Shown here: positions 16,021 to 63,900 of the stretch, piece by piece
How positions within the stretch are numbered: position 1 is the first letter of the stretch
Layout of the letters: the number at the start of each line of letters is the position of its first letter
Assembly (NCBI GenBank): GCA_016937715.1
Contig: JAFGWA010000017.1
Coordinates: 3,227 to 67,226 of the forward strand
Reading direction: 5' to 3'
Source: Candidatus Goldiibacteriota bacterium
GTDB taxonomy: Bacteria > Oederibacteriota > PGYV01
Length of the DNA: 64,000 nt
Program-made: the position numbers and the translations under genes
Notes under the pieces: model-generated
The model's database searches: none
What the model was told of the DNA's origin: nothing
Seen by the model: only the letters and a program-made list of their open reading frames with translations

Positions 16021-16048
16021 GCTTAAATACCCCTTGTTTTTACACAAC

Positions 16049-35579: not shown

Positions 35580-35597
35580 TTGTTCCACGTGGAACAA
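35580..35597. promoter_or_regulatory. parS site 1 (perfect TTGTTCCACGTGGAACAA)
   Basis: An 18-bp perfect palindrome whose 16-bp core TGTTCCACGTGGAACA fits the ParB-binding consensus tGTTnCACGTGnAACa. It lies immediately after the rsmG stop. Confidence 0.8.
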
Positions 35598-35921: not shown

Positions 35922-35939
35922 TTGTTCTACGTGGAACAA
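35922..35939. promoter_or_regulatory. parS site 2 (one mismatch: TTGTTCTACGTGGAACAA)
   Basis: Single C>T change in the left half-site; the exact mirror image of site 3. Confidence 0.65.
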
Positions 35940-36062
35940 TGAGAAGTTAAATAAGAGAATACTATCCTTAAGAAATATATATAAGCAATGCCTGCTTATG
36001 GTAATAGTACCGCATATATAGCCGCGTAACTTAATTAAACATAAGCTGCTTAAACACACCTA

Positions 36063-36080
36063 TTGTTCCACGTAGAACAA
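36063..36080. promoter_or_regulatory. parS site 3 (one mismatch: TTGTTCCACGTAGAACAA)
   Basis: Reverse complement of site 2. Confidence 0.65.
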
Positions 36081-36348
36081 TCTTTTAAGTATGGCAATAA
36101 TCATATTTATACTATAAAAATATAAGATAATGAATCAATACCGGAGGATAAAAACACATGCTTAAGCGCCTTTTTTGGTATCTATTAAAATGTAAAATTA
36201 ACTGATATGTATTAAATAATTACAGCGTTACAAATTTATGGTTGTGAATGTTAATTACAATAACAAGCATAAATAAATGTTTTGATGCATAACAATATTA
36301 TCAGAGAAAATATAAAGTCAAAGCAATCAAACATTATAAATACGCAAA

Positions 36349-36366
36349 TTGTTCCACGTGGAACAA
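36349..36366. promoter_or_regulatory. parS site 4 (perfect TTGTTCCACGTGGAACAA)
   Basis: Perfect 18-bp palindrome, 88 bp upstream of the recF start. Confidence 0.8.
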
Positions 36367-36453
36367 CTGAAAATTCTATAAAAATATATGTCTTGAAAAA
36401 GATATTCTATTGGTGTATCTTTGTCTCAATAGAAATATATTTCCGGAGGCAGG

Positions 36454-41824: not shown

Positions 41825-42175
41825 ATGAAGCCGTTTGACTGTGAAACCTGCGGTTTAAAGATTAAAGATAATCAGGCCGTTGTCAGGTGGCATTATGATA
41901 AAGAAAAAAAATCCGCGGATACTTTTCAGATAGTCCATCCAAATACGGTATGTTCAGATTCCAAAGAAGGTTTTTTTAACCGGTCGCTTGAACTGATGTA
42001 TGTTTTTGGAAAGATGCCGGAGTTTATAAAGTACATTTCAAGGTTAAAACACGATAAAAAAGAGCTTAAAAGGTTTGTGGACCGTATTGAAAAAGGGCGC
42101 AGTTACATAAGGCGGCACAACGCGGATAAAAACGAAATTAAAAAGCTGATAATAAGGCTTGAAGGGCTGGAATGA
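41825..42175 (+). CDS. hypothetical small protein with an N-terminal CxxC motif
   Basis: 116 aa, CETCG near the N-terminus, Lys/Arg-rich; tightly packed in the operon. Confidence 0.35.
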   Translation: MKPFDCETCGLKIKDNQAVVRWHYDKEKKSADTFQIVHPNTVCSDSKEGFFNRSLELMYVFGKMPEFIKYISRLKHDKKELKRFVDRIEKGRSYIRRHNADKNEIKKLIIRLEGLE

Positions 42176-42645
42176 TAATGGAATGCAAAGAGGCAAGAAA
42201 AAAACTTAATGATTATTCAAAAGGATATATTACAGATACCGCGGAAAAAGACAGCCTGGAGTCGCATATTAAAAAGTGCGAACTGTGCAGGCGGGAGCTT
42301 GCCATGTGGCAGGATGTAAACGACAGGCAGCACGGCCTGGAAGGCGGGCGCGTGTCATCGCGCCTTGCGGAAAAAGCCCATCAAATAAGCGGTGAAATGG
42401 AAAAAGACGTAAATATGGCTCCGGCCGCCAAAAGAATGGGTTATGTGGCCAATACTTTAAAATCTCCCGCGGCAATGATAATAGGAATAATTACGTGCGT
42501 GTTTTTAGGGCTGGCAATTCTGCTTATGTTTGTTAAAGAAGAAGTAAGCATATGGTTTCACATATTTATGATAGCGGGAGGAATTGCCATGATATTTGTG
42601 GCGGTTAAAACGTCCGTCTTCAACAGGAAGAAAAGTAAAAAGTAA
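42172..42645 (+). CDS. zf-HC2 (anti-sigma-factor-type zinc finger) membrane protein
   Basis: N-terminal C-x23-H-x3-C-x2-C (CKEARKKLNDY...HIKKCELC) typical of the anti-sigma zf-HC2 domain, then a C-terminal TM segment. No sigma factor gene is adjacent. Confidence 0.5.
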   Translation: MIMECKEARKKLNDYSKGYITDTAEKDSLESHIKKCELCRRELAMWQDVNDRQHGLEGGRVSSRLAEKAHQISGEMEKDVNMAPAAKRMGYVANTLKSPAAMIIGIITCVFLGLAILLMFVKEEVSIWFHIFMIAGGIAMIFVAVKTSVFNRKKSKK

Positions 42646-42711: not shown

Positions 42712-43140
42712 ATGGCAGATGACATTACCAGGTTAAGAGAAACGCTTAAGAAGGTTGATTTTTTCTATTCTTTAAACTTTGCTCAGCTTGACGAACTTAT
42801 TAAAGCAATGAAAAAACAGAAATTCAGAAAAGGTGAAGTAATAATTCAGCAGGGTGAAACCGGAGATGCTTTCTACATGATATCGGTAGGTTCTGTATCC
42901 ATACATATAAAGAAAGGAATGTCAGAAAAGAAAGTGGCAGGGCTGTCAGAAGGTGATTTTTTTGGAGAAACAGCACTTGTAACAGATTCGCCAAGAAACG
43001 CCACTGTTATAGCAGAGGCACCTACAGAGCTGTTTGTATTGCATAAGGCCTCTTTTAAGAAAATACTTCTTGCCAACCCTAAGATATCTGCTATAATCAA
43101 AGAAGAACTGGCCAAAAGAAAGTCAAAAAACGCATTATAA
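42712..43140 (+). CDS. stand-alone cyclic-nucleotide-binding (CAP effector) domain protein
   Basis: 142 aa. The cNMP-binding beta-roll has FGETALV...PRNATVIA and a C-terminal helix, with no DNA-binding or other output domain. Confidence 0.8.
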   Translation: MADDITRLRETLKKVDFFYSLNFAQLDELIKAMKKQKFRKGEVIIQQGETGDAFYMISVGSVSIHIKKGMSEKKVAGLSEGDFFGETALVTDSPRNATVIAEAPTELFVLHKASFKKILLANPKISAIIKEELAKRKSKNAL

Positions 43141-43251: not shown

Positions 43252-45036
43252 ATGTCTGAAACAGCAATCAAAGAAGGTGAAGCAATTAATTACGTGCTTG
43301 AAGGTATTGACCAGTCGGTTAAAGACGGGGTTATGACAGCCCTTGAATTTTTTGGAAAAGAAAAATCTGACAACGGCAATAAAATAGAGGATGTTGTTAA
43401 GGTAAACAAATTAAGGACCGCTTACAATACATTAATAACAGCCCTTGTAACAACAAGGTTAAATGACCTTAATAAACAGCAGAGGCTTTTTCTTGCCACC
43501 GGCGCCATAGGCGATTTTGTGGAAATAGGCGATAACAGAATTAATCTGCTTGATCCGGAACTATACAAACAGCTGCTTGAAGCTTTTGAAACAAAAGATT
43601 CTTTAAGCGCGCTTTCGCTTTCAGTGTTCAGCGTACCGGATAAAATGAGGGCGCTTGCAGAGGGCAATATTGAACTTATAGACACTTCGGGCAAAAAGAA
43701 AAGAAAAAAGGAAGATACGCGCGACCCCAAGAAAGTAAAAGCGGAACTTGAATGGAAAAAGAATGACGCGTTAAAAGCCGGCGCTAACCTTGTAAGGACG
43801 CTTGGAACAAATATAGACAAGATGCTTCAGCTGGACGCGACAAAGTTAAAGACTTTAAAACTTAATTTTGACGCGCTGGATAAATACATGGCAATACTTG
43901 CAAAGGGAGAAAGGATAACACCCGAGGAAAAAAAGCTTAAGTCCGCCCTTGCAATGAGAAGCGACGGCATGGCAAAAGTGCTTGCTGATTTTACAAAGAT
44001 GTACGCAGAAACTTTTACAAGGTCGGCTGAAAATGTTGATGCCATAAAAGAAAAAGTTGACGTAATAAAAGAACTTGAAAATGACCTGTCAAAAGTATCA
44101 GATGTGGTTGCTGACCAGTCCGCAAGGGCATTTGATTCTTTCAGGCCCGAACACGTTGAAATTATTAAAAAAGATATAAGCATACTTAACAGTTTTATAG
44201 TAACGGCCGCGGAAAAAGCCGGCAACAGGATGCCGTATTCCGGCGCCAGGATACTTTTAAACAGCCAGATAATAGATATGCCGACAGCAATGACAAACTA
44301 TCTGTGCACGCCGCATAACGTCATAGAATCACTTAAAAAAATACTTTCAATTCACATAAACGCTTTTCCGATTGATGAAGACGGCAATTATAAAATCCCC
44401 CCCATTCTTATTGAACCTTTAAGAAATTATGTGGATTTTTTGGAAGACAGGTTTGTGATGGGTTTTGTAAGCGGCGAATCAGGCAAGAAAGGCGCGTATG
44501 TTTCATTTACCCCCATTGATTTTCAGGTTATGAAAGCTATTGGAATGTATCTTGCGAAAGATCCTGTATATGACTATCGCGGTGAAATAAACGAAGGTAC
44601 GTTTATGGGAGACTATACAGGAAAAATAGAAAAGACGGCTCAGGTGAAATGGACCGGCGCGGATAAGAAAATGAATATGGTTATGAGCGCGGAACTTGTG
44701 GACGCCGCATCCCGCGATGACGCGGTTCAGGATTATATAGATTTTATGTTCAACGCTTTAAACGGGCTTGGGCCTCCGCCTAAAATGTCAAAACGTAAAA
44801 TTAACGTACTTTTAAGATATGCCACGGTAAAGAGCATAGAAAATAATGTTAAACTGCTTTTAACTTATGTGGCTCAGTCCGAACCCACGGAAGTGCGTGA
44901 TACTATTCTTAAATACACAAACAGAAATTACGAACAGTCCAAAGAAATGGTAAGGGCATGCGTAAAAGAAGACGCAATGGTTCAGAGGATACTTGGCAAC
45001 AACCCGGAAATGGTAATAGCTAAGATATTTGTTTAA
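43252..45036 (+). CDS. hypothetical 594-aa soluble protein (no recognisable domain)
   Basis: Long ORF with a GGAGG RBS 9 nt upstream and coding-like composition, no TM segments, and no nucleotide-binding or catalytic motif identified by eye. Confidence 0.5.
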   Translation: MSETAIKEGEAINYVLEGIDQSVKDGVMTALEFFGKEKSDNGNKIEDVVKVNKLRTAYNTLITALVTTRLNDLNKQQRLFLATGAIGDFVEIGDNRINLLDPELYKQLLEAFETKDSLSALSLSVFSVPDKMRALAEGNIELIDTSGKKKRKKEDTRDPKKVKAELEWKKNDALKAGANLVRTLGTNIDKMLQLDATKLKTLKLNFDALDKYMAILAKGERITPEEKKLKSALAMRSDGMAKVLADFTKMYAETFTRSAENVDAIKEKVDVIKELENDLSKVSDVVADQSARAFDSFRPEHVEIIKKDISILNSFIVTAAEKAGNRMPYSGARILLNSQIIDMPTAMTNYLCTPHNVIESLKKILSIHINAFPIDEDGNYKIPPILIEPLRNYVDFLEDRFVMGFVSGESGKKGAYVSFTPIDFQVMKAIGMYLAKDPVYDYRGEINEGTFMGDYTGKIEKTAQVKWTGADKKMNMVMSAELVDAASRDDAVQDYIDFMFNALNGLGPPPKMSKRKINVLLRYATVKSIENNVKLLLTYVAQSEPTEVRDTILKYTNRNYEQSKEMVRACVKEDAMVQRILGNNPEMVIAKIFV

Positions 45037-45164
45037 AACGCAATCAAAGATTGCGTTTTAAATCCCCGTGCCATTATAATAAGTATATGGCACAGCGGGA
45101 TAAATAAAAGATTGTGTTTATAATCCCCGTGTTTATGGAGAAGCGTGATAAATAAGTAAAAAAT

Positions 45165-45198
45165 GCCGCAGGTGAAAACCTGCGGCTTTTTTATTTTT
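45165..45198 (+). terminator. rho-independent terminator
   Basis: GCCGCAGGT-GAAA-ACCTGCGGC followed by TTTTTTATTTTT. A weaker hairpin (AACGCAATC-AAAG-GATTGCGTT) sits at 45037-45062, directly after the stop. Confidence 0.7.
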
Positions 45199-45288
45199 AA
45201 TCCAAACCCTGTTTATTTTTGGATTTAAGAAGTGGTAGACGCGGGTCTTCAGCCCGCGGACGTTGTATTTGTTGTATATCTTTTCTTC

Positions 45289-45321
45289 CATCCCTCTGAC
45301 CTTTTGTGCATCCGTCCCTTC
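45289..45321. repeat. copy of the GATGCACAGA-type intergenic repeat (minus orientation)
   Basis: ccatccctctgaccttttgtgcatccgtccctt is the reverse complement of aagggacggatgcacaaaaggtcagagggatgg. Compare 55582, 60751, 60850 and 29659/29808. Confidence 0.55.
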
Positions 45322-45702
45322 ATATTACATTGGTTGGGCATGTTTTTTCAGCACGCGCCGCAAATCGGTATTCTTGCGCCCAAATCAGTTTGAAATCACA
45401 GGTTTGTTAACGTCATTTGCGGCCGGGAGCTAGCGTCACATACGTATATGTCACCGATGCATTAAACAGATCCTGCCGGATACACACTATGTTAGGGCGG
45501 CGCGCACTGAAAAAACACACCCACCTTATGTTTGTTTTGAAGGTTTTATTTATGGGATAATTCAGGGGGGTTACGATATTAATTTCGTCCTGATGAATAT
45601 AAATTATTTTTGCGCGGCGTTTTTATAAAGAACACGTACAGTTTTTTTTGTATTTGATTTTATAAAAGTGAATTAATATTAAAAGAAGTATTTACTAAAA
45701 AA

Positions 45703-47466
45703 TTATGGTTTAATTTTTGTTTCTTCCATCATCATTATTATCTGATCGGTGCCTTTGCCAAGTGAATTGGGGTCATATTTGGAGGCAAGGTAAAGTTCCA
45801 ATGAAGCAAGATTTTCCCTGCCGGTTTTCATATAAAGCGTTGCCATTGCCGTATGCGCCATTCCAAAATAGGGGTTAAGTTCAAGCGCTTTTTTCAGGTA
45901 CGATTCCGCTTCATAATTTTCATTGTCAGACAGGTGCATTGCTCCAAGATTATAGAGCATATCAGCCGAATAAGGGTATATTTTTAAAGCTTCCTGATAT
46001 TCTATGTAGGCTTTTTTCCTGTCATTATTCAGAAGCGAATAACCCCTGTAATAGCGGGTGAAAAAATTATGCGGTTCAAGCATAAGTGCTTTGTCAAAAT
46101 ACACCATTTCCATATTGGTTTTTTTTAAAAGCGCGTTAAAACCTTTTTTAATATGAAGGTTTGCCGCCGCGGGCAGTAAAGATATAAAAATGTAAATAAA
46201 TATCGGAACCGTTAATACCGGCAGAAGCCGCGAAGGTATTTGAATTACATTTTTTCCCGCACCCGGCAGGGAATAAAGGTATCCGCAGAAAAGCCAGAAA
46301 ATAAAAGCGGAAGGCATTATGAACAGCGGAAAGTTATATAGCGATTCACAAAGGAAAAAAATGACAGAAGCTAAAAGCGCGTAAGCCAGAGGTTTGTCCT
46401 GCCGTAAGATTAAAGCTTTGCCCCTGTCAAAAGAAATAAGCAGCGCGGATACAAACAATAAAAAAAGCAAAAGTCCTGCCGCGCCCGTTTCCACAAACAG
46501 CTGAAGATAATCGTTATGGGCGTAAGAAGTGCTTATAAAATAAGGTTTCTCCGGTGTTATAACCGAAGCCTGATACTTTTGAAAATAATACCTGAATCCG
46601 CCTGCGCCGAAGCCAAAAACAGGTTTTTCTGCGGACATTTTAAGCCCTGTTTTTAAAATGACCGCCCTGTTAGAAAGGGAAGCGCCGCCGCCGCCGGCAA
46701 TTTCAAGCGCCCTGTTAATATTATAGGAGATTGCGGGTTTAAAACGCGGGAGAAATGTTATTGCCGTGAAAAGAACCAAAACAATAAGCATAATTACTGC
46801 CGTCTTTTTTTTAGCGGCTGCCGGAAAAGGTTTATCGGTAAAAAACAGGTATAAAAAAATTAAAAGGGAGACAAAAAGCGACAGTACAGCGCCCCTTGAA
46901 GAAGCAAGAGCAAGTACAAGAAGGGATAAACAAAGATTAACCGAGGTAAAAGGCTTGTATTTTTCGTAAGCCAGAAGTGATACAAGTATCAAAGGAAAAA
47001 GGCAGGCGGTAAATTCTGCAAGAAAGACAGGGTTTCCAAAAAAAGATAAGGGCCGTTCGCCGGTATTTATATACTGAGAAAGCGCGTATATAGAAGAAAC
47101 AAATGAAATAATATTGATGAAAATAAGAAAATTACCGCTTTTAAGTTTTGTTATTAACGGCATAAAAAAAGCCGCAGGTATCAATAAAGTAAGCAGATAA
47201 TAAACAGGCGGAAAATTATACAGCGATAACAAAGCGCGCGCCATAATATAAAAAAGAAACACGGATGCGGCTATTGCGGCTGATCCAAAATAAATTTTTT
47301 TACTGAAAAAAGAAAAGACAGCTATATATACGGCACATCCCGCTGTCAGTAACAGGGCTTTAGGCAGCTGATACATGTCATAAAACAGGGATGAAAAAGC
47401 AAGGACGCACAGAAAGATACCATAAAAAAAATAGTTCTGGAGAGAATTATTGCGTTTTTCTTGCAT
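45703..47466 (-). CDS. O-antigen ligase (Wzy_C)-family polytopic membrane protein with C-terminal TPR repeats; candidate pilin O-oligosaccharyltransferase (PglL/TfpO-like)
   Basis: About 12 TM helices with the Wzy_C signature region (LALASSRGAVLSLFVSLL); the C-terminal ~150 aa are TPR-like. It is the last gene of the prepilin operon, separated by 2 nt from the upstream gene. Confidence 0.65.
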   Translation of the reverse strand: MQEKRNNSLQNYFFYGIFLCVLAFSSLFYDMYQLPKALLLTAGCAVYIAVFSFFSKKIYFGSAAIAASVFLFYIMARALLSLYNFPPVYYLLTLLIPAAFFMPLITKLKSGNFLIFINIISFVSSIYALSQYINTGERPLSFFGNPVFLAEFTACLFPLILVSLLAYEKYKPFTSVNLCLSLLVLALASSRGAVLSLFVSLLIFLYLFFTDKPFPAAAKKKTAVIMLIVLVLFTAITFLPRFKPAISYNINRALEIAGGGGASLSNRAVILKTGLKMSAEKPVFGFGAGGFRYYFQKYQASVITPEKPYFISTSYAHNDYLQLFVETGAAGLLLFLLFVSALLISFDRGKALILRQDKPLAYALLASVIFFLCESLYNFPLFIMPSAFIFWLFCGYLYSLPGAGKNVIQIPSRLLPVLTVPIFIYIFISLLPAAANLHIKKGFNALLKKTNMEMVYFDKALMLEPHNFFTRYYRGYSLLNNDRKKAYIEYQEALKIYPYSADMLYNLGAMHLSDNENYEAESYLKKALELNPYFGMAHTAMATLYMKTGRENLASLELYLASKYDPNSLGKGTDQIIMMMEETKIKP

Positions 47467-47468
47467 TG

Positions 47469-49343
47469 TCAGAACGGGTATTCCGGTACCGGCGTCGGAA
47501 TCAGGTATGTAAGCTCCCTGAATGAAAGCAGGGAGACGCTGTTCTGCAGGTAAGAGAAAGCGTTGGCATTCATGTTAAAATATACAGCAAGCCTTGGAGT
47601 GTCGTTAACAGTATCTATGGAAAGGGAGCCGTGTTCGCCGATATATAAAGTGCCAAATATCAGAATGTCTGAAACTGTTGTTTTACCGTCGCAGTCAGCA
47701 GGCGGTGTTGGTGTGCCAAGTACAACTCCCACGGTTGCAGTGGGTGGAACAGGCACCGTTGGTGTTTCAGTAGGCCCGCCGGGTGTGTTTGTAGCAACGG
47801 GTGTATTTGTTACCAGCGGTGTTAAGGTGGCAACTGCCGTAAGTGTTTTAATTGCCACAGCGGTTGCAGTGGCGTCATCTTTCCAGTTTGCATAAACCGC
47901 AGGCGGTTCCATCAGTTTGGCTGCCGCTGCTTTAATTTTTGAAAAAATAGAAGGTTTGGCTGAAGCAAAGGCGTTTGTTTTTTCTACTGTGTTATTATCA
48001 CAAGTGCTTGTCTTACAGCGCACGCCGCCGATTTTTAATTCGCCGTCAATGTACATAAAGCCCGCGTGTTTAATGTTATTAAGGGCGGAGCCAAGAAAGC
48101 CTTTGGTATCAAATTCCAGATGGTTTGTGGTATCTTCCTGCGGGTAATAGTAATTTGAAGGTATATCTATTCCTAATAGAGTAGGCCAAAAAGGCAATAG
48201 AGGATCTTTCTCATTGTTAGGAGGTTCAGGGCCTGGGTCTGCTCCTTTTAAAATAAGCGGCCCCTGTATTATCATTGAACCCACTGTATAAAGCTGTGAA
48301 TAAGCGTTGTAATATACGGCAACCGTATTTGCTGATACATAAGTGGTACCGCAGTAAGTATTTGTAGGGTTGGAAGGCGATGCGGGAACTCTTAAAGGCA
48401 GCGCGTCCGTGGTATCTACAAATAATACATCTGATGTGGATTTTAGCGCGTTATGAATTGCCACGCTGTTTAAATCTGCCAGGTCGTGCAGGCCGTCGTT
48501 AATGTAAAAAGGATTGGCTGTGCCTGACCCTCCCACTGTGGCCGGCCCGTAATATCCGCCTTTTTCATATGCAAGCTGTTTATACGCCTGAAGTGAAATC
48601 TGCGGCGCTATAGCCATTGGCGAATAAGGGTGTGATTTTGCCGTGGGGCTCATGTCCTCTCCCACGTATCCAAACTGATAATTGCCGCCGCTTTTGCCGT
48701 AAGCCGTGTAAATATTTGAAGCGGAATAAACTGCAGGCCCCCACGCTTTGGGAGTTGTGCTTCCCATACCCACGGGTATGTATGGAAAATGAAAAGTATC
48801 ATCGTCCCTGTTGGCATGATAGACATCGCCCCAGAAAAAGCCGTACATGGGTATACCATTGGCGTCAATTGAATTGTTATTGCAGGGAAGGTTAATTTTA
48901 CCTTTTGAAATAAGCGGGCCGCCATAACCAAGTTTTTTTATTACTCCGTAAAACTGATGAAGTTCGCCTGAAGGGTAAACTTTTACCTTAACGCCTATAG
49001 TCCTGTATTCTTCATGGCCCTGACGCACGCTGTCTGTCATAAATAAATTGCCTTTTTCAATTGTTACCGCGTATGAACCAAGTCCCGGGATATTGTATTC
49101 TTCGTCATATTGAAATCCCGTCATTGGAATGTTGTACCAGTTGTTTTGAAGCTGCATTCTGTACCGCGCATGTTCCATGCCTATGGAAGCAAGCTCCTGT
49201 TTACGGGTTATATCCATGGTTTTTACAAGCATCTTTGATTCCTGCTGAAAAAGAAAAAGAAGGGTGTAAGCAAGGATGGCGATGACGGCGCCCACTATAA
49301 GGGCTGTAGCAAGTATCTGCCCGCCTGAATTTTTTATCTGCAT
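47469..49343 (-). CDS. PilX-N-domain pilus assembly / minor pilin-like protein with a Thr/Pro-rich region
   Basis: The N-terminus GGQILATALIVGAVIAILAYTLLFLFQQES...RKQELASIGMEHARYRM matches the PilX_N architecture; C-terminal TPxTxTP repeats. Confidence 0.55.
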   Translation of the reverse strand: MQIKNSGGQILATALIVGAVIAILAYTLLFLFQQESKMLVKTMDITRKQELASIGMEHARYRMQLQNNWYNIPMTGFQYDEEYNIPGLGSYAVTIEKGNLFMTDSVRQGHEEYRTIGVKVKVYPSGELHQFYGVIKKLGYGGPLISKGKINLPCNNNSIDANGIPMYGFFWGDVYHANRDDDTFHFPYIPVGMGSTTPKAWGPAVYSASNIYTAYGKSGGNYQFGYVGEDMSPTAKSHPYSPMAIAPQISLQAYKQLAYEKGGYYGPATVGGSGTANPFYINDGLHDLADLNSVAIHNALKSTSDVLFVDTTDALPLRVPASPSNPTNTYCGTTYVSANTVAVYYNAYSQLYTVGSMIIQGPLILKGADPGPEPPNNEKDPLLPFWPTLLGIDIPSNYYYPQEDTTNHLEFDTKGFLGSALNNIKHAGFMYIDGELKIGGVRCKTSTCDNNTVEKTNAFASAKPSIFSKIKAAAAKLMEPPAVYANWKDDATATAVAIKTLTAVATLTPLVTNTPVATNTPGGPTETPTVPVPPTATVGVVLGTPTPPADCDGKTTVSDILIFGTLYIGEHGSLSIDTVNDTPRLAVYFNMNANAFSYLQNSVSLLSFRELTYLIPTPVPEYPF

Positions 49344-49358
49344 GATAAGTCCTCCTTT

Positions 49359-50015
49359 TTAATTCCCGTAGAATCCGGCAGAAGTGCTGTGTTTTAAAAC
49401 AATCTGCTGTTTTAAAAGTACGCGTATGGGCGGCCTGTTTTTATAAACCATTTTTGACAGCCTGACCGCGACAGAGACAGATTTTTCTTTTTTTGAATCG
49501 TTAAAAGTCACCATAAAAGAATCCAGGTGGGAAGTCACTGTCATATATGTATAAGTATAGTTAATGGTGGAAGGGCTGGAAATGGAAGAACCGGCGGCAA
49601 GTTTGGGTATGCGCGCGTAAAGTTTTCTGCCATACTGAAACATTTCAACTTCCGCGCCGGCGCCGCCCACCATATCTGATGTTGATGTGGTAAATCCGCA
49701 GCTGCCCGGGCTTGATGTGGTGACGTAAACAGTTTCGGCAAGCTTTCCTGATATATAACTGTTGGCGGGCTGATTTGTGTCCACTCTGGAAATTTTTATA
49801 GTGGGTGACTGCGCGTACTGCATAAATTTAGAAAGCGCGGTTATGGCGTTGCGGCCTTCCATGTTAATGGCAATATTTGACGAACCAAAATTCCAGGCGT
49901 AAATTGCCGTATTAAGCATCTGGCCCAAGCCCGATGTTACTATACCCATTATGGCAATTACTATCAAAGCTTCTATCAGGGTAAAACCGCCTGTGTGGTT
50001 TTTTTGCCTTTTCAT
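49359..50015 (-). CDS. type IV pilin / pseudopilin (prepilin-type N-terminal methylation domain)
   Basis: Class III signal peptide KNHTGG^FTLIEALIVIAIMGIV (G-F-T-L-I-E), followed by a Ser/Thr-rich globular domain. Confidence 0.7.
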   Translation of the reverse strand: MKRQKNHTGGFTLIEALIVIAIMGIVTSGLGQMLNTAIYAWNFGSSNIAINMEGRNAITALSKFMQYAQSPTIKISRVDTNQPANSYISGKLAETVYVTTSSPGSCGFTTSTSDMVGGAGAEVEMFQYGRKLYARIPKLAAGSSISSPSTINYTYTYMTVTSHLDSFMVTFNDSKKEKSVSVAVRLSKMVYKNRPPIRVLLKQQIVLKHSTSAGFYGN

Positions 50016-50037
50016 TTTTATCAGCCCTTCTTTTTAT

Positions 50038-52116
50038 TTAATAAGTGATCCAAGCGCCGGAAAAATCCTGGTCAGAAGAAGGCGGGGTCACTCCGGTAAT
50101 TTTTTTATAATACTTTAAAATGGTTGAAGCCGGATATGATACGTAAGAATAATAAGCATACAAATCATAGTCTGTATTTGCCGGCAGCATTATTTTATAT
50201 GCTCCGGTCCTTTCGGATACCATACCGTAAAACTGAATCTTTTTTCTTTTTAATGAAGTCTGAATTTTTTCATCGGCATTTACGCTGTCCAGGGAATAAA
50301 TATGGGGCGGAGTTGTAATGCTTGAAGGCTGCGCTATAATCATCGCGCCGTCCATTATATCATTTCCCACTCCGGGCGCGCTTATCTGAAGTTTGCCGGA
50401 AACTTCTTTTGCGTTAACCTGTACTGTAAAATTCTGATTTGGGGTAACATTGCCCTGTGTTACAAGAATTGAATAAATTGATTCTGCGCTTTCGTCCGGA
50501 TACGCCGCGTATGAAGAGGCTTCAGGAAATATGCGTACCACATTGTTGGTGCCGGCCCATACGCCGTCAAACTGATACTGGCCTGTTATGGTGTCAGAAG
50601 ACGCGCTTCCTACAAGCCTGCTGTATTCGCTGTAAGCCTGAAGGTTAATGGGGCCTGCGGGCGGCAGATTGGTGTCAAAGTCTATTAGCTGCCCGCTTAT
50701 ACTGCCGCTTGGATAAAAATAAAGTTTTACAACAGGCGGTGCCGCAGCCACTGATATAAATCTTGTGGGTTCTTCGGGCACGTAGTAATTGCCTGCGCCG
50801 GTTATTTTATAATTACCCACATCAACAAGAATTGTTGCAATTCCGGACACGGGCGCGGTGGTTGCAGTGTACATAACCGCGTCAGTGACAACGTTTTTTA
50901 AAACAATATTAATGTTGCCTATAGGAGTGGATTTATCCCTGGCATCCAGCGCCTGCACCATAAGGACCGCTGTATTGCCCGCCACAGGTTGTAAGGTGAT
51001 ATTGACGTTTGTGATATTTGAATTGTTATTTACGGCCACACGTGCGGGGTAAGCGCCGTAATAGGTCACGCCTGTGTCTTTGTGCGTAAATATGGCGGTT
51101 ATAGAGACAGAACCCACATCCGGATTGATGCCTGTAATAGAATAATCCCCGTGCGTGTCCGCGGTGGTGGTAAAAGATGTTCCGTCATCAGCGCGTATTT
51201 CACGCGATTCTTTTTTATAATCATTGACGTTTATTGGGTTGCCGGAAGAGTCCAGTATTGTACCTGATATTGATGCGTCCTGAATGTCCGGCGCGAAAAA
51301 ATTAACGCCGTTTACGTTATTTGTGGTTACTTCTATTATAACGGGATTATTTTCGTATTCTGCCCTTTCATAACCTTCGCCCTGTGTGTATAGTTTATAA
51401 GTTCCCGGCAGTACGTTATAAATTGTGTAGTATCCGCGTTCCTGTGGTGTGGTGGCTTCTGTCCCCACTTTAACGGAATACTGTGGAAAGCCTTCAACGT
51501 GGACATAACTTTTTGTGGCGTGGCCGGGAGGCGCCGGATTACAGTTTCCACAGTTACGTTCTTTTCTTAAAACTCTTCCTCTTATGGTGGCGCCTGACAT
51601 CTGACTTTCGGGATTTGAAACAAATGTTTCCAGTTCTGTAGTCCTGTCCATAAATCCGCCCGAAGCGCTTTTCACCTGATAGGCGATTATAACTCTAATT
51701 TTTTTCAGGTTTGATAACGGAAGGTCTGCCTGTGTGCGGCCCACAATATTGCCTTCGTCGTCTTCTTCCGCGTTCTGAACTATTTTATAAACTTTCATTT
51801 GTATTCCGCCTACCGGAAGAATATTGGACGGGTCAGCCGGGTTTCCCCAGGGGTTGGAATCACTTTCCAGTTTTGTAAGAGGGTAAGGAAGTAAATTATC
51901 CGGTGTAAGTTTAAGCGAACCGAAATTGTAACTTTTTATATTTTCAATATTTTCTGCCGCAATGTTAAAAGCATAGGTTTTTACGCGGGAGGCAAAAATA
52001 TCATTGTAAACCCTTGTGATAAGGTTTAAAGAACCCATTACTAAAAAGACAATTACAAAGGAAGCAATAATTACTTCTATAAATGTGAGGCCTTTAGAAT
52101 CTCTAAAAAGCTTCAT
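50038..52116 (-). CDS. giant prepilin-type protein (692 aa) with Ig-like/carboxypeptidase-regulatory-like domains (tip adhesin-like minor pilin)
   Basis: N-terminal SKG^LTFIEVIIASFVIVFLV prepilin motif; downstream Ig-like/CarboxypepD_reg-like segments (ASISGTILDSSGNPI...). Confidence 0.6.
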   Translation of the reverse strand: MKLFRDSKGLTFIEVIIASFVIVFLVMGSLNLITRVYNDIFASRVKTYAFNIAAENIENIKSYNFGSLKLTPDNLLPYPLTKLESDSNPWGNPADPSNILPVGGIQMKVYKIVQNAEEDDEGNIVGRTQADLPLSNLKKIRVIIAYQVKSASGGFMDRTTELETFVSNPESQMSGATIRGRVLRKERNCGNCNPAPPGHATKSYVHVEGFPQYSVKVGTEATTPQERGYYTIYNVLPGTYKLYTQGEGYERAEYENNPVIIEVTTNNVNGVNFFAPDIQDASISGTILDSSGNPINVNDYKKESREIRADDGTSFTTTADTHGDYSITGINPDVGSVSITAIFTHKDTGVTYYGAYPARVAVNNNSNITNVNITLQPVAGNTAVLMVQALDARDKSTPIGNINIVLKNVVTDAVMYTATTAPVSGIATILVDVGNYKITGAGNYYVPEEPTRFISVAAAPPVVKLYFYPSGSISGQLIDFDTNLPPAGPINLQAYSEYSRLVGSASSDTITGQYQFDGVWAGTNNVVRIFPEASSYAAYPDESAESIYSILVTQGNVTPNQNFTVQVNAKEVSGKLQISAPGVGNDIMDGAMIIAQPSSITTPPHIYSLDSVNADEKIQTSLKRKKIQFYGMVSERTGAYKIMLPANTDYDLYAYYSYVSYPASTILKYYKKITGVTPPSSDQDFSGAWITY

Positions 52117-52188
52117 ATAACCACTTCCTTTGCGGAGTTAAATCCATAGTAATTATATATATAAATAGAACTTATGTCAAGTATTTAG

Positions 52189-52899
52189 TCAGATTTTTGG
52201 TTTTAAATGCTTTCCTATTATAAGCATTATAACGGCTGAAAGGCAGGTTATTAAATTTAAAGTTAAAAAAAGCCACAGTTCCGCGCCGGAAACAGGCCTG
52301 GTGAATAAAATAAGCGAGTTTAAAACGCAGGACAATATCAGAAAAACCGCTGTTTTGTAATATGGTATTGTTTTAGTAAATTTAATAAGGACAATAAATA
52401 TAATAAAAAATGCCAGTGACTGGTATATTTGGGAGGGTAAAAGGGGGGCGCCGGAAAATTTTTCAAAAGCCGCTGATGTTTGGGGATAGAAAATTGTAAA
52501 GGTTTTCTGCGGGTCAGCCGGAATGCCGTAACAGCACCCTTTAAAAAGGCAACCTATTTTGGCAATTGAAAGCCCAAGCGCGGCTGCTGCCACAGAACTG
52601 TCAGAAGCGTGAAATAAATCCGTGCTGTATTTTTTAACTGCAGGTATTGAAACAAGAACGGCCAGAAAAATACCGGCGGAAAAAGAGGCGCCATGAATGC
52701 CGAAAATTTTTGGAATAAAAACCGCGCCTGTTATAAAAGCGGCGGCAAAAAAAAGCACATAAGCGTGTGTAATGTTTTTTTCTTTTTTTGTTTCGGTCAG
52801 CCCTGAAAAATAAAACACAAAACCTGACATAGATGCAATGATAATAAACAAAAGATATGAATCAAACTGTAAGTTTCCTATAGTTATTGTAGGTATCAT
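52189..52899 (-). CDS. lgt: prolipoprotein diacylglyceryl transferase
   Basis: Lgt blocks: N-terminal ITIGNLQFDSYLL (like IGP..IHWYGL), GIHGASFSAGIF (like GGMSFHGGLIG), AKIGCLFKGCCYG (like GRLGNFINGELWG), and LPSQIYQSL (like HPSQLYE). Confidence 0.65.
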   Translation of the reverse strand: MIPTITIGNLQFDSYLLFIIIASMSGFVFYFSGLTETKKEKNITHAYVLFFAAAFITGAVFIPKIFGIHGASFSAGIFLAVLVSIPAVKKYSTDLFHASDSSVAAAALGLSIAKIGCLFKGCCYGIPADPQKTFTIFYPQTSAAFEKFSGAPLLPSQIYQSLAFFIIFIVLIKFTKTIPYYKTAVFLILSCVLNSLILFTRPVSGAELWLFLTLNLITCLSAVIMLIIGKHLKPKI

Positions 52900-52995
52900 G
52901 AATAAAGTATAGCAGAAATAATATGTATTGAAAATAGCGATTACATGGCATATAATTTAAAATATATCAATAAACCTGCATTCAGGGAGACGAAG

Positions 52996-55581
52996 ATGAA
53001 AAAAGCATTATTAACTTCTGTTCTTTCATTATTATTATCACTTCCATTATCCGCCGCAATTACCGGGATTGATATTACAATGACACCCGCAAATCCGGCG
53101 CCGGGCGATCCGGTTGTGGTTACGCTTTATTATTGCGCCAACGCTTATGAAGCGGCTAATTTTATTCTTGCCTTTACTAACACAAGCACTTTGCGCCCGG
53201 ATGATTCACCCGGTCAGGTTTATCTTGTAAGCAGCGCAGGTATTAATAATCCTTCAAATGCGACAGGCGGCGGATATCAGGTTGCGCAGCAGTCAGCCGC
53301 TTATTGCCAGACTTTAACATGGAATCTTACAGTCCCAGGCAGCCTTGAACCGGGGGATACAATTTATGTTATAGCCGCAGGAAGGGCATACGATGTAAGG
53401 TATGACAGCATGGACAGTTCGGATTCAGTAAGTTTTACGGTTCCGCTTCCGCCCGCATCCGCTTCTTTGACAAAAACTGCGGAAGCAACAACTGTAATTC
53501 CGGGGGGAAATGTTTTATACACGCTTAATTACAGTTATGTAAATTCAAACAGCCTTGTAATTACCGATATGGTTCCTCCAAACTGCACTCTTTTGCAGAT
53601 AAGCCCGGGAGGCACAAACAGCGGAACTGCCGCAGGTTCATCATTATCATGGACTCTTCCTGCTACGGGAAAAAGAAAATCAGATATTGTATGGTTTCTT
53701 GTAAATGTGGACGCGGCTTTGGCTCCCGGCGCGACAATCAACAATTCCGCTGAATGGGCGCTGACAGACACTTTTAGTGCGGTTACAAACGGTATAAGCA
53801 ACGACACAACTGTGACGGTTATAAGGCCTTTTGCTTTTATAAAAAGCCAGCAACCCGTTACAGCACAGATGGGAGATACTGTAACTTATACCCTTAGCGT
53901 TTCTTTAACAGGTTACAGTCTTAATTTTTATGATTCTTTTGACACAAATCCTATAACCGGATATCATAATATCGGCGGGTCATGGAGCTGGATGAGTGAC
54001 GGCGCAGGAAGCGGATATTTGTATTCTCCATTGCAGTCTTCTTATCCGCAGTATTTAAGGGACACTCCTGTGGATTTTTGCGATGGTATTGTACAGGGCG
54101 ATATTTATGTGGGACCAGGAGGAAATGAAGACGGATTAATATCATTCAGGCACAGCAATACAAATCCGGCTCTTGCGTACGGTATCGGAGTTTCCGGAGA
54201 CCATCTTCCGGGAGACCTTTATCTTCAGAAAACAAATCCGGGAGTTGCGTTGCCATATTGCCCTGTCACATGGTGCAGCAACGCGCTGTCAGTAAGCGAC
54301 AGCAGGTGGTACACGGTTAAAGTTCAGGTAAACAGCCTGTCAGGCTATTCAACAGGGATTTGGGCAAAAGCATGGGCTAAGGGAGAACCCGAACCTGCGG
54401 CATGGATGATTGCCGTTACTGATACCGCAAACGCTACTTACACACAGATACCTGCGTGCGGATATGTGGGTTTTCAGGGGCATCCGGACAATTACAATTA
54501 TTATGATAATTTAAAAGTGATAAACGGAAATCCGATAGCATCCGGCGCTGTTATATTTGATACCGTGCCGGCGGAAATTACATATATTGATGGAACAGGC
54601 GCGCTTGCAGGCGTTCACGACGCGGCGGTTTATGATCCGGTTTCAGGTGTTGTAAGCTGGTTATACCCGGGGCTTCAGACGGATAAAGCAGACATCCTAA
54701 TATGGAGCGGGGTTATTAATTCATGCGGCCAGATAACAAATACAGGCGCGATAAAAGCGAATGATTTTAATCCTATAGTAAATTCAAACAGCGTTATGTA
54801 TGACATACCGTGCGGTACGCCTTCAATTACGCCGACTATTACCCCCACTTCCACAATTACAATTACAGTTACGCCCACAATTACAGTTACGGCAACGCCC
54901 ACAATGACTCCCACGCCAATTCTTCCGGTTCTTGTAATGTCCAAATCAGTCGCGCCGTCAAGCGCGGCCACAGGCGATACAATAACCTATACAATAAGGG
55001 CTTCCAATGTTACAGGGCTTATTGCCGCTGATAATGTAATTATCTGGGATACTCTGCCGCCAAAACACACTTATATAGCGGGCGGTACTTATGACGCGGT
55101 AAACAGGGTTGTGTCTTTCAGCACGGGAACCATACCTATGGGCAGTTATATTGATTATTCGTTCACTGCGATGCTTGATGATTCAATTAATAAAAATGAA
55201 AAATTTTATAATACCGCGCTTTCCAACTGCGACGCCGCGTCTTCCGCTTTTGTTTCAAACCAGACAACGCTTTCGGCAATTGTGCCCGACCTTGAACTTA
55301 AAAAAGACGTAACATATCCAAATCCGACCGATGGAGAGGCAATAATTGTTTTTCATCTGTCAGTGCGCGCGGATGTCACAATTAAAATTTTTACAATATC
55401 CGGTGAGACGATAAGAAAGATAGACGGTATAAACGGTGTCAAGGGAGTAAATAAAACATTGTGGGACGGCTTAAATGACGCGGGTGAACGTGTGTCATCC
55501 GGAGTTTATATTTATAAGATAGATGCCGTTAACGGGGACGAGAAAAAATACGTCTTTGGCAAAATGGCGGTTATGAAGTAA
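52996..55581 (+). CDS. large secreted surface protein with DUF11-like repeat domains, a Thr/Pro-rich linker and a T9SS-type C-terminal sorting domain (start chosen at the internal Met with RBS)
   Basis: Signal peptide MKKALLTSVLSLLLSLPLSAA (GGGAG RBS 6 nt upstream). The linker is PSITPTITPTSTITITVTPTITVTATPTMTPTP. The C-terminal about 90 aa (YPNPTDGEAIIVFHL...IKIFTISGE.IRKI....G.N...WDG.ND.GE.VSSGVYIYKI) matches the Por_Secre_tail / FlgD-Ig-like CTD. Confidence 0.7.
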   Translation: MKKALLTSVLSLLLSLPLSAAITGIDITMTPANPAPGDPVVVTLYYCANAYEAANFILAFTNTSTLRPDDSPGQVYLVSSAGINNPSNATGGGYQVAQQSAAYCQTLTWNLTVPGSLEPGDTIYVIAAGRAYDVRYDSMDSSDSVSFTVPLPPASASLTKTAEATTVIPGGNVLYTLNYSYVNSNSLVITDMVPPNCTLLQISPGGTNSGTAAGSSLSWTLPATGKRKSDIVWFLVNVDAALAPGATINNSAEWALTDTFSAVTNGISNDTTVTVIRPFAFIKSQQPVTAQMGDTVTYTLSVSLTGYSLNFYDSFDTNPITGYHNIGGSWSWMSDGAGSGYLYSPLQSSYPQYLRDTPVDFCDGIVQGDIYVGPGGNEDGLISFRHSNTNPALAYGIGVSGDHLPGDLYLQKTNPGVALPYCPVTWCSNALSVSDSRWYTVKVQVNSLSGYSTGIWAKAWAKGEPEPAAWMIAVTDTANATYTQIPACGYVGFQGHPDNYNYYDNLKVINGNPIASGAVIFDTVPAEITYIDGTGALAGVHDAAVYDPVSGVVSWLYPGLQTDKADILIWSGVINSCGQITNTGAIKANDFNPIVNSNSVMYDIPCGTPSITPTITPTSTITITVTPTITVTATPTMTPTPILPVLVMSKSVAPSSAATGDTITYTIRASNVTGLIAADNVIIWDTLPPKHTYIAGGTYDAVNRVVSFSTGTIPMGSYIDYSFTAMLDDSINKNEKFYNTALSNCDAASSAFVSNQTTLSAIVPDLELKKDVTYPNPTDGEAIIVFHLSVRADVTIKIFTISGETIRKIDGINGVKGVNKTLWDGLNDAGERVSSGVYIYKIDAVNGDEKKYVFGKMAVMK

Positions 55582-60752: not shown

Positions 60753-60883
60753 GGGACAGAGGGACAGATGCACGGAAGGTTGGAAGGATAAAAAAGTCAG
60801 CACAGATTAAGCTATAAGCAATTAAGCAGAAGCGAAATAAAAGTTTTTGCCGACCATCCGAACATCTGTGCATCTAACCATCC
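60751..60883. repeat. MITE-like element: imperfect inverted copies of the GATGCACAGA-type repeat (60751-60790 and 60850-60883) flanking the TAAGCAATTAAGCAGAAGCGAAA motif (60815-60837)
   Basis: Left arm gagggacagagggacagatgcacggaaggttggaagg. Right arm ccgaccatccgaacatctgtgcatctaaccatcc is the reverse complement of ggatggttagatgcacagatgttcggatggtcgg. The left arm starts at the MFP stop codon. Confidence 0.55.
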
Positions 60884-60948
60884 TGTTTTATAATTTATGT
60901 GATATGGGATAAAAGTTTATTGGTTTATTTTTTAAAACTGGAGAATAA

Positions 60949-63900
60949 ATGAACATAGCAGAACTTGCAATAAAAAGGCCGATATTTGTCATAATGATAG
61001 TAGTATCTATACTTGTACTTGGCGCGCTGGGATATACTTCCATGGGCGTGGATATGCTTCCCGATGTGGAATACCCGACGCTGTCTGTGGTTACGGTTTA
61101 TGAAGGCGCGTCAGCCGAAGAAATTGAAAATCTTGTAAGCAGGCCTATAGAAGATGCCATTGCCGTGGTTGAAGGGTTGGAATCGCTTTCTTCCGGTTCA
61201 AGTGAAAACGTATCTTCTGTCACAGCGCGTTTTTCCCTTGGAACTGACATTAAATACGCGGAAACAAAAGTCCGCGATGCTGTTAACAAGGCAAAGTGGG
61301 AACTTCCGGATGACGCGGACGAACCGTCGGTTGTAAGGTTTTCTTCCGCTGAATGGATTCCCGTGCTTGTAATGTCAGTAAAAGGAAAAAAGGACCTTGC
61401 CTCTCTGAAAGAAATAATTGATGACGATATAAAACCTGAAATTGAAAAATCAAAAGGCGTCGGAAAAATTGACCTGTGGGGCGGCCGCGACAGGGCGGTA
61501 AACGTGACGGTAAATAAAAGCGCGCTGGCCGCGCGCATGGTGTCTTTCGCGCAGGTTATGGAAGCTATTGGAAAAGAAAATTTAAATTATCCGGCGGGTA
61601 ATATAGAAAAACCCGGAAGAATTACAGCCGTAAGGGTTAAGGGAAAATTCGAATCAATAAGCGACATTGAAAATGTGCCGATAAAAATTTTTTCAGGCGA
61701 AACCATAAGGTTAAAAGACGTTGCTAAGGTTAATTTTGGGCTTGAAAAAGAAACCGCAAGGTCCCGTGTTAACGGGGAAAACGCCATAATTTTTGGTGTT
61801 TATAAACAAAGCGGCGAAAACACCGTGGCCATATCAAAAGCCGTAAAGAAAAAGATGAAAGCAATACAGAAAAAACTTCCGCAGGGAGTAACCTTAAGTA
61901 TTTTCAGAGACCCCACGCTGCACATTGAAGAAAGCATAAAAGGGCTTCAGGAAGACATAGGCCTTGGCGCGCTGTGCGCGATTATAATAGTCTGGCTTTT
62001 TCTTGGCAGTTTCCGCTCCACCATGATTACCGCAATCGCCCTTCCTAATTCGCTTTTGGGAGCTTTCTTTTTTATAAACGCGTCAGGCTTCACGATAAAC
62101 ATGATGGTGCTTCTGGCTTTATCGCTTTCAATAGGGCTTCTGATAGACGATTCAATAGTTGTGCGAGAAAATATTTTCAGGTATCTGGAAAAAGGGCTGT
62201 CGCCAAAAGAGGCGGCTGTTAAAGGCACCAACGAAGTGGCGCTTGCTGTCATTGCCACCACAGCTTCCATACTTGCCGTGTTCATTCCCATTTCATTTCT
62301 TGAAGGCATAGTGGGGCAGTTTTTCAAGCAGTTCGGCCTTACCATAACTTTCGCGCTGGCAATATCGCTGGTGGATGCTTTTACCACGGCCCCCATGCTT
62401 TCAGCGTACTGGTGGAAAAAAGAAGACCCGGATAAAAAGAAAAATATTTTTAATAAAATGCATCAGAAATTCAATTTTTATTATGACAGTTTTAAGGAAG
62501 TTTATAAAGACGTGCTGGAATGGTGCCTTGACCATAAAAAAACAGTTATTATTTCCGTAACCGGCCTTATCGGCGCGAGCATAGGAGCCGCGATGTTTAT
62601 AGGAATGAGTTTTCTTCCGAATTCTGATTACAGGGAAATGGAATTAACAATGGAAATGCAGCCCGGCACCACAATTGATGTGGTGGACAAAAAACTGCTT
62701 CAGATAGAGGCGTATTTAAAAACAATAAAGGATATAGAACATTATTATACAGTGGCCGGATATGGTGAAAATAACAGGGGCAGGATTTTCTGCGGGTTTA
62801 ATAAAAAAGGAAGGCCTACAACAGTGGTAACCGCTGAAGTAATGAAATACATAAATGATAATTTCGGCCCCGGCCTTACTCTTACAAATGAAGACAGCGG
62901 CGCGGCTACGGTGGTATCGGGAGGCGGCGACACTTTTCCGATAACTATAAACATCACGGGTGAAGAGTCAAAAATACTTGAACAGATAGCAATGGAAATT
63001 AAAAAAGCGGCTTTGGAAACACCGGGTGCGTCCGGACCCAATACTTCTTCCAGGCCCGGAATGCCGGAAATAAGTATTATGATAGACAGGGTTAAGGCGG
63101 CAAAACTTGGTTTTTCCACTTATGAAACAGGGATGCTTTTAAATATCCTGATAAACGGCAAAGAAGTTTCGCGCTACAGGAAAGGAGACAAAGAATACGG
63201 AATAATAATGCAGATGGCGCAGGAAGATAAGACAGATTTAAATTCGCTGAAAGACATAATGCTGACCAATTCAAAAGGCGATAAGATTCCTTTATCCGCG
63301 ATAGCGCGTTTTGAATCCGGGTCCGGCCCTGTTGAAATAAAAAGGGAAGATAAAAAAAGGATAATTAAAGTGACAGCCGGAATCGCGGAAGGGTTTGCCC
63401 TTGGCGACGTTGTAAGGGACTTAAATGAAAGAATAAAAAAAGAAGTGCATATCCCCGAAGGGTACGATTATTCTTTTGGCGGACAGGCCACGCAGATGAC
63501 AGACACAGTAACGCAGATGGCAAAGGCAATGCTGCTTGCGCTTCTGTTTATGTATATGATACTTGCGTCACTTTATAATTCGCTTACGCAGCCTTTAATA
63601 CTTATGCTTTCCGTGCCGCTTGCCATAATTGGTTCTTTCCTGGCGCTGCTTATCACCGGGCAGCAGCTGGACATAATGGCTATGATAGGTTTCTTAATGG
63701 TGCTTGGGCTTGTGGCAAAGAACGGGATATTGCTTATAGATTTCACTAACAAGATGCGCGAAGAAGGAATGTCCGCGCGCGAGGCTTTATTACATGCCGG
63801 CCCGATAAGGCTGCGCCCTATTTTAATGACCACGTTTGCCATGATATTCGGAATGCTTCCGCTTGCGCTTGGATTCGGCGAAAGCGTGCTTAGGACACAG

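Follow-up and report, generated by a model that had tools for sequence, protein, structure and literature searches.

The window analysed here, a stretch of 64,000 nucleotides from a Candidatus Goldiibacteriota genome (contig JAFGWA010000017.1), carries a minus-strand operon in which three prepilin genes are followed by the gene for a polytopic membrane protein that combines a Wzy_C domain with C-terminal tetratricopeptide repeats (TPRs). The four genes encode P1 (50038-52116, 692 aa), a modular prepilin with the class III signal G^LTFIEV; P2 (49359-50015, 218 aa), a Ser/Thr-rich prepilin with the signal G^FTLIEAL; P3 (47469-49343, 624 aa), a GspK/PilX/ComZ-like tip pilin without Glu5; and P4 (45703-47466, 587 aa), the Wzy_C-TPR protein. 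The listing of open reading frames (ORFs) reproduces exactly the tight packing given in a preliminary description of this DNA, with gaps of 22, 15 and 2 bp. Purine-rich ribosome-binding sequences are found 5' of P1, P2 and P3, while the junction of P3 and P4 reads TGA-CA-ATG, which suggests translational coupling. A promoter-like site, TTGACA-17-TATAAT (52152-52180, minus strand), lies within the 72-bp gap before P1 and is recognized by consensus match only, agreeing with sigma-70 at 12 of 12 positions; the P1-P4 block has no strong internal promoter-like site. At the other end, a bidirectional terminator-like hairpin (45165-45186; 9-bp stem with seven G-C pairs and T-runs on both sides) stands about 520 nt past the stop codon of P4 and separates it from a convergent gene for a 594-aa protein. 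An Rfam scan of the operon and of the 666-bp gap after P4 gave nothing beyond sub-threshold terminator-like matches.

On profile and alignment evidence P4 belongs to the Wzy_C superfamily and keeps the catalytic Arg/Arg/His residues. The Wzy_C profile (PF04932), a search proposed in the preliminary description, matches residues 178-336 (window 46459-46935) with 77.5 bits against a gathering cut-off of 31.7, relatives of P4 score 55-81 bits, and Pfam also finds the C-terminal TPRs. In an alignment of P4 with ten clade relatives the invariant positions are R138-P-x-S-F-F-G-N-P, S190-R191-G192, R252, R267, T313-S-x-x-H317-N-D-Y, E326 and N378-F-P-L-F. With Wzy_C-TPR proteins of far greater divergence included, R191 and R267 are still invariant, and H317 is invariant in a set of eight sequences and nearly so in a set of 15. 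The residues needed for activity are R215, R288 and H338 in Escherichia coli WaaL and R224, R298 and H349 in Neisseria PglL (PMC3643930), and the corresponding His is also essential in TfpM (PMC9829042). The spacing of R191, R267 and H317 in P4, 76 and 50 residues, compares with 73 and 50 in E. coli WaaL and 74 and 51 in PglL, as calculated from the residue numbers in PMC3643930.

This constancy of the Arg/Arg/His residues and of motifs on periplasmic loops, across proteins that are only 20-35% identical, argues for retained enzymatic activity. It also bears on a very improbable explanation, that P4 is mainly a non-enzymatic scaffold whose TPR domain chaperones or docks tip pilins at the assembly platform and whose Wzy_C core is a membrane anchor. 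The position of the gene would suit such a role, as PilY1 follows pilX in classical minor-pilin operons and P4 sits where PilY1 stands; the TPR proteins PilF, PilW and Tgl act in pilus biogenesis, and P4 has weak TPR-only matches to these. Pilotins of the PilF/Tgl type are, however, outer-membrane lipoproteins and not proteins with 13 transmembrane (TM) helices.

The preliminary description had counted 12 TM helices in P4, and it is this number, rather than the Wzy_C domain or the TPRs, that needs correction. The AlphaFold2 (AF2) model (predicted local distance difference test, pLDDT, 75; predicted TM-score, pTM, 0.73) has 13 membrane helices, the last of which, residues 412-448, continues directly into the TPRs. 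The predicted membrane domain with its WaaL-like fold comprises residues 1-433 (46168-47466, minus strand), and the TPR domain of about four repeats comprises residues 434-587 (45703-46167, minus strand, including the stop codon). In a model with the N-terminus inside, 13 helices and the C-terminus outside, the short loops contain 18 Lys and Arg residues on the cytoplasmic face against four on the periplasmic face, and the same arrangement follows if helices are counted starting at the catalytic loop, whose location has to be periplasmic. With 13 helices and the C-terminus outside, the prediction puts the TPR domain in the periplasm, the compartment in which the globular domains of pilins sit.

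The top Foldseek match of P4 in the PDB is the O-antigen ligase WaaL (7TPG; E 1e-5, TMt 0.60, 18% identity over 433 columns), below which there are TPR proteins only, prominently OGT and SPINDLY. No structure of an O-oligosaccharyltransferase (O-OTase) is among these matches, so the fold cannot tell a ligase from an O-OTase. A sequence search of the PDB with full-length P4 also finds 7TPG, at E 7e-4, and phmmer with the isolated membrane domain gave nothing at E<=1.

That WaaL is the only solved fold matching the P4 core favors an explanation in which P4 is directed at polysaccharide, either as a WaaL-like ligase acting on lipid A-core or another lipid, or as a Wzy-like polymerase. Co-transcription with the pilin genes would then reflect coordinated function of a surface polysaccharide and a pilus, and the TPR domain would bind a partner from a polysaccharide-export or pilus machinery rather than a substrate pilin. 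The Wzy_C family does include ligases and polymerases besides O-OTases (PMC3643930), P4 has no match to PglL_A, and one relative of P4 is encoded in an exopolysaccharide (EPS) cluster. The lineage is diderm, with genes for Omp85 and outer membrane protein (OMP) beta-barrels in the window, and may need a ligase. The content of the window speaks the other way. It consists of the dnaA-dnaN-gyrB-gyrA region together with housekeeping, signalling and outer-membrane genes, and among the scanned ORFs (those of at least 142 aa up to position 60752, with 60753-64000 and shorter ORFs outside the scan) there is no gene for lipopolysaccharide (LPS) core, O-antigen, Wzx, Wzz or a glycosyltransferase. Moreover, the tight junction of P3 and P4 is kept in relatives, the solved WaaL has neither the extra TM helix nor a periplasmic TPR domain, the best Foldseek matches of the TPR domain include the protein-glycosylating OGT and SPINDLY, and the linkage to pilins recurs in independent gene orders. 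We regard a polysaccharide-directed P4 as unlikely, though as the main competitor.

The description of P1 as a prepilin-type protein with Ig-like and CarboxypepD-reg-like domains, and that of P2 as a class III-signal pilin, are both borne out. The N-terminus of P1, KG^LTFIEV, has both Gly-1 and Glu+5, and behind the N-terminal helix lie Ig-like beta-sandwich repeats of about 500 aa and a CarboxypepD_reg match (Pfam, 41.9 bits against a cut-off of 32.3). According to tblastn, P1 is conserved over only the first ~290 aa in many relatives and its C-terminal part varies, while NCBIfam and Pfam give weak N-terminal matches to ComGE and PilV; we propose that P1 is a tip pilin in the PilV/GspI position and an adhesin. 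P2 begins GG^FTLIEAL, matches N_methyl with 31.5 bits against a cut-off of 21.2 (Pfam), and has weak matches to GspH and GspJ. Its family shares the C-terminal motif K-H-x-[HST]-[ST]-[STA]-G-[FY]-Y-G-N; the match of the family profile to PDB pilins is limited to the generic N-terminal helix, and the profile search detected no relative of the globular part among PDB sequences. Ser and Thr make up 21% of P2, against 11.5 +/- 2.7% in 34 other proteins of the window. In a six-frame motif scan P1 and P2 have the only canonical prepilin motifs in the window.

P3 starts with GG^QILATAL, which leads into a hydrophobic helix without Glu5. Its AF2 model (pLDDT 69) has a long N-terminal helix, residues 9-64, and a globular part rich in beta-solenoid. 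The fold scores are highest for GspK (3ci0_K, 11.5), followed by beta-solenoids of the ice-binding type (9-10), Thermus ComZ (8.7) and XcpX (8.4), after which come many further type IV pilins; Foldseek alone gave no significant match. The lack of Glu5 is a hallmark of GspK and PilX, the filament-capping subunits (PMC7541494). P3 had been described as a PilX_N-type protein with Thr/Pro repeats, and of this the missing Glu5 and the GspK-like predicted fold remain, whereas no Pfam family, including T2SSK and PilX_N, matches the sequence, and the Thr/Pro-rich region is lineage-specific. Searches of PDB sequences with P1, P3 and their family profiles gave nothing useful. The P3 family has only 17 representatives at E<=1e-30 among 1.84 billion proteins; the roughly 115 more distant relatives are mostly ~360-550 aa long and have mainly the N-terminal module in common, and the eight of these that were scanned have no pilin-related Pfam annotation. 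P3 would be a ComZ-like pilin carrying a beta-solenoid insert. Taken together, P1, P2 and P3 resemble a tip or priming set of the GspI/J/K or PilV/W/X kind, an assignment that is well supported for P3 and that for P1 and P2 we infer from gene order and size.

The arrangement of the operon is a property of a phylum-level clade. A metagenome-assembled genome of Candidatus Goldbacteria has an annotated protein with 100% identity to P3, P2 is 94% identical to a protein of HGW-Goldbacteria-1, and the homologues of P4 comprise some at about 80% identity and a set at 30-35%. Related loci were taken from the contigs around P4 homologues and from one genome per species, and were compared with the window proteins by tblastn. 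The order Lgt-like gene, P1, P2, P3, P4 is found in every Goldbacteria/FCPU426 locus with enough flank, which amounts to 16 loci (13 distinct genome-contig loci), some of which have records under the labels "Spirochaetia" or "Methylomirabilis". Protein identities across these 16 loci are 27-49%, and the gap between P3 and P4 remains tight at 4-24 bp. As order and tight spacing recur in all 16 related loci, the four-gene arrangement is not due to chance.

Conserved adjacency might nonetheless be without functional meaning, P4 being the housekeeping O-antigen ligase of the clade, placed where it is by inherited gene order. The collinearity of the clade does extend well past the operon on both sides. 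The flanks vary, however, while the P1-P4 block is intact throughout: in one locus (L002) an additional gene separates P1 from the Lgt-like gene, and eight loci have a fifth gene after P4. The single promoter-like site upstream of the block and the lack of a strong internal one also argue against this explanation, and unrelated lineages likewise pair Wzy_C-TPR proteins with pilins. We consider it improbable.

Among these other lineages, the locus of P0021 (L025, 1456-7135; 27% identity to P4) has the gene for the enzyme first, followed by four overlapping prepilin-type genes of 186, 171, 168 and 790 aa. Their products resemble GspH, GspI, GspJ and GspK, the last is without Glu5, and homology to P1-P3 is limited to the N-terminal helix. 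At the locus of P0015 (L026, 581-4317), the genes just upstream on the same strand encode two pilins with N_methyl, 154 and 138 aa long. A different partner is found at L019-L022, from Pyrinomonadaceae, other Acidobacteria and Bythopirellula, where the Wzy_C-TPR gene overlaps the start of a gene for a conserved secreted protein of 620-760 aa; at L019 (9035-13038) this protein has He_PIG and LCCL domains. There are no prepilins at these four loci, and the two genes could encode another enzyme-substrate pair.

A control sample was drawn from 80 metagenome loci that contain AHNDYLQL in a DNA-motif scan, mostly ordinary O-antigen-ligase-like genes of ~450-490 aa. The shorter Wzy_C genes in this sample (mostly 440-500 aa, including truncated ORFs) have no prepilin neighbor. 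Linkage to pilins is found in three of about nine lineages of TPR-bearing relatives and in about one of 70 control loci, so that it is enriched but not universal, and the comparison is indicative only because the sample was picked by similarity to P4. One control locus (L069, 7410-14041) encodes a 642-aa Wzy_C protein without detectable TPRs, flanked on one side by a gene resembling those of major pseudopilins and on the other by several minor pseudopilin genes in a row; a gene for a 1624-aa protein follows.

From these comparisons it may tentatively be suggested, at somewhat short of even odds, that the Wzy_C-TPR proteins are an unrecognized class of O-OTases, each dedicated to a surface protein whose gene adjoins its own. 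Members of such a class would have a WaaL-like core joined through a 13th helix to a periplasmic TPR domain that docks the substrate. Tip pilins would be the substrates in Goldbacteria/FCPU426 and in two further lineages, and secreted proteins with Ig domains would take their place in Acidobacteria and Planctomycetes.

For the operon itself, the best hypothesis is that P4 is a pilin-dedicated O-OTase, to which we give a probability of about 0.5, and it is an even call that the operon as a whole encodes a type IV filament tip or priming complex together with a dedicated, periplasm-facing glycan transferase. From sequence, P1, P2 and P3 are predicted to be co-transcribed prepilins anchored in the inner membrane, and P3, which lacks Glu+5 and has a GspK-like predicted fold, has the signature of the filament-capping subunit. 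The catalytic Arg/Arg/His residues of P4 are predicted to lie on periplasmic loops, and the extra 13th helix to put the TPR domain in the periplasm, where it may dock the protein substrate. P4 would accept a glycan linked to undecaprenyl-pyrophosphate, with the genes for its synthesis at other places in the genome, and move it en bloc to Ser or Thr residues of at least one of the co-encoded pilins before assembly. The most likely acceptor would be the Ser/Thr-rich P2, and in this strain the Thr/Pro insert of P3 might serve as an additional one. Encoded elsewhere would be the glycan pathway and the filament machinery, with its ATPase, platform, secretin, prepilin peptidase and major pilin. No pilB/C/D/M-Q genes are present among the scanned ORFs of the window, in keeping with the preliminary description, which had named pilB, pilC and pilM-Q.

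All known pilin O-OTases contain Wzy_C, and the gene is often beside a pilin gene (PMC3643930, PMC9829042). The earlier idea of P4 as a pilin O-glycosylation enzyme thus retains the Wzy_C domain with Arg/Arg/His, the position outside an LPS or O-antigen locus, the conserved and recurrent linkage to pilins and the predicted periplasmic TPR domain. Assignment to the PglL/TfpO type has to be given up, as P4 has no PglL_A or Wzy_C_2 match and is larger than TfpO and TfpM, and no pilin here ends in Ser or Thr. As the families are currently defined, P4 falls outside PglL, TfpO/TfpM, WaaL and TfpW. If it acts on protein, it would be a novel TPR-bearing O-OTase variant working on tip pilins in a candidate phylum, rather than a member of the PglL/TfpO group.

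Several observations weigh against a pilin-dedicated P4. Neither PglL_A (PF15864) nor Wzy_C_2 (PF11846) matches P4 or four relatives at E<=10, although HMMER filters may hide very weak matches, and NCBIfam models of ligases, polymerases and O-OTases do not match the membrane part of P4 at E<=0.1. No genes for glycan synthesis or a flippase are found among the scanned ORFs. The C-terminal residues of P1, P2 and P3 are Tyr, Asn and Phe. The idea that a Ser/Thr-rich pilin is the substrate has the 21% Ser and Thr of P2 on its side, but the pilins resemble a minor-pilin tip set and not a major pilin substrate, and we know of no pilin O-OTase that modifies tip pilins of the GspI/J/K type, the known enzymes acting on major or ComP-type pilins. 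The proposal that P2 is itself a GspJ/PilW-position pilin has position and size as its basis. The Thr/Pro-rich stretch of P3 (approximately residues 441-563) lies within a 122-residue insertion that is reduced to 8-30 residues in most family members; being lineage-specific, it is ruled out as a conserved target of P4. Collinearity in the clade takes in genes for NFACT-R_2, type IX secretion system (T9SS)-tail, Lgt-like, 594-aa and cNMP-binding proteins, so synteny overstates the functional linkage of P4 to the pilins. In other lineages, P0022 (L027, 951 aa, Wzy_C with TPRs) is encoded in an EPS cluster with Wza, Wzc, GT4 and acyltransferase genes, where its neighbors are a Wzc-like gene and a GT4 gene, and the Wzy_C-TPR genes at L023, L024, L045 and L047, from various lineages, have no pilin neighbor. 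Literature searches on pili or type IV filaments of Goldbacteria, and on an association of O-antigen ligases with TPRs and minor pilins, returned nothing relevant.

The gene directly 5' of P1, on the same strand, encodes a divergent Lgt-like membrane protein of 236 aa (52189-52899, minus strand). It matches PF01790 with 57 bits and the NCBIfam lgt model with 29 bits against a cut-off of 119. The motif GC(L/F)xxGCC(F/Y/I)G is invariant in the window copy, which is the shortest and most divergent, and in those of L001-L015; we take GCxxxGCC to lie at the expected position of the Lgt signature. Because P1 has its own promoter-like site, it is uncertain whether this gene is a member of the cassette. 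A role as pilin-lipidating partner was considered and is not supported, as no pilin has a lipobox Cys close to its N-terminus and P1 has a promoter-like site of its own.

In eight relatives a fifth gene follows P4 on the same strand and encodes a polytopic membrane protein of ~415-527 aa with ~13-15 hydrophobic segments and no Pfam match (L003, 11803-13305; L008, 11801-13384; L009, 11713-13197; L011, 11715-13208; L012, 6439-7977; L014, 11688-12935; L015, 11701-13200; L017, 8634-10118). The window has no remnant of it in the 666-bp gap, 45037-45702. The 594-aa protein beyond this gap (43252-45036, plus strand) is the most conserved neighbor, with 60-69% identity across the clade, and its gene is always convergent to the operon; it has no Pfam or PDB match. 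Beside it lie plus-strand genes for a 142-aa cNMP-binding protein (42712-43140) and a 157-aa protein that weakly matches TrbC/VirB2 pilin (42172-42645). On the other flank, an 878-aa secreted protein (52945-55581, plus strand) combines DUF11 repeats and a linker rich in Thr and Pro with a C-terminal FlgD_ig/Por_Secre_tail region of the T9SS type A sorting kind; its gene, which points away from the Lgt-like one, is syntenic in several relatives, and the protein hints at T9SS-type sorting in Goldbacteria. Elsewhere in the window, a cluster of DnaA boxes at 14458-16144, three of them perfect (TTATCCACA) and several with one mismatch, surrounds the start of dnaA and the spacer between dnaA and dnaN, which makes it probable that oriC is in the window. 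Further along, at ~30-36 kb, there is a switch in the direction of the genes and in GC skew, close to an AT-rich gap (35580-36453).

To our knowledge, every characterized O-linking oligosaccharyltransferase (PglL, PglS, TfpO and TfpM) is proteobacterial, and these enzymes are the working tools with which bioconjugate vaccines are engineered. If P4 proved to be a fifth class, with built-in TPR docking and different acceptors, the choice of usable sequons would be widened, and there would be a hint of how substrate choice is encoded, in parallel to the TPR-bearing OGT, TMTC and TfpW. That glycans are directed to tip pilins rather than to the shaft would be a novel notion in the biology of type IV filaments, and a glycosylated pilus tip complex in Goldbacteria would be hitherto undescribed. 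The operon is a first handle on the surface appendages of the uncultivated Goldbacteria/FCPU426 lineages.

Comparison with known systems helps to define what is familiar and what is new. Like GspI-GspJ-GspK and PilV-PilW-PilX, and like the system of Thermus ComZ, the operon has three consecutive prepilin genes. P3 shares with GspK the lack of Glu5, the predicted fold, a large inserted domain and the last place in the series, and with ComZ an insert that is a beta-solenoid. The set differs in that P1-P3 have no sequence-level match to the T2SSK, PilX_N or GspI/J families, P1 bears ~500 aa of Ig-like repeats, and there is neither a fourth, GspH/FimU-like pilin nor PilY1.

WaaL proteins have 12 TM helices and a cytoplasmic C-terminus, and their genes are usually located in core or O-antigen clusters. 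The enzyme from Cupriavidus metallidurans (7TPG) is the best structural match for P4 residues 1 to ~430 and has the same Arg/Arg/His arrangement, yet it is only 18% identical and has no TPR domain, whereas P4 has 13 TM helices and a predicted periplasmic TPR domain, no LPS genes among the scanned ORFs around it and no NCBIfam ligase match. With PglL, PglS, TfpO (PilO) and TfpM, P4 shares the design of a polytopic inner-membrane Wzy_C enzyme with Arg/Arg/His, a gene that adjoins prepilin genes outside LPS loci, and presumably periplasmic en bloc transfer from a lipid-linked glycan. It departs from them in the missing PglL_A and Wzy_C_2 matches, in TM13 and the TPR domain, in its GspI/J/K-type tip pilin neighbors, where theirs are a major pilin or ComP, and in its host, Goldbacteria rather than Proteobacteria. 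The marks of the PglL type are PglL_A C-terminal to Wzy_C, PglL_B, and residues Q178, N180, H400, E404 and P406 of NmPglL (PMC3643930). TfpO and TfpM are ~420-470 aa long and their cognate pilin ends in Ser/Thr (PMC9829042), unlike the 587-aa P4 with P1, P2 and P3, which have no such C-terminus. The closest architectural parallel is TfpW of Pseudomonas aeruginosa Pa5196/PA7, a pilin D-arabinofuranosyl transferase of the GT-C/ArnT-like kind with a DDX motif, 11 predicted TM helices and a C-terminal TPR domain that is large and periplasmic, whose gene lies directly downstream of pilA. P4 is likewise a multi-TM protein with a predicted periplasmic C-terminal TPR domain, encoded directly 3' of a pilin gene, but its core is Wzy_C/WaaL-like with 13 TM helices, so that the likeness is one of architecture between proteins whose catalytic parts are not homologous.

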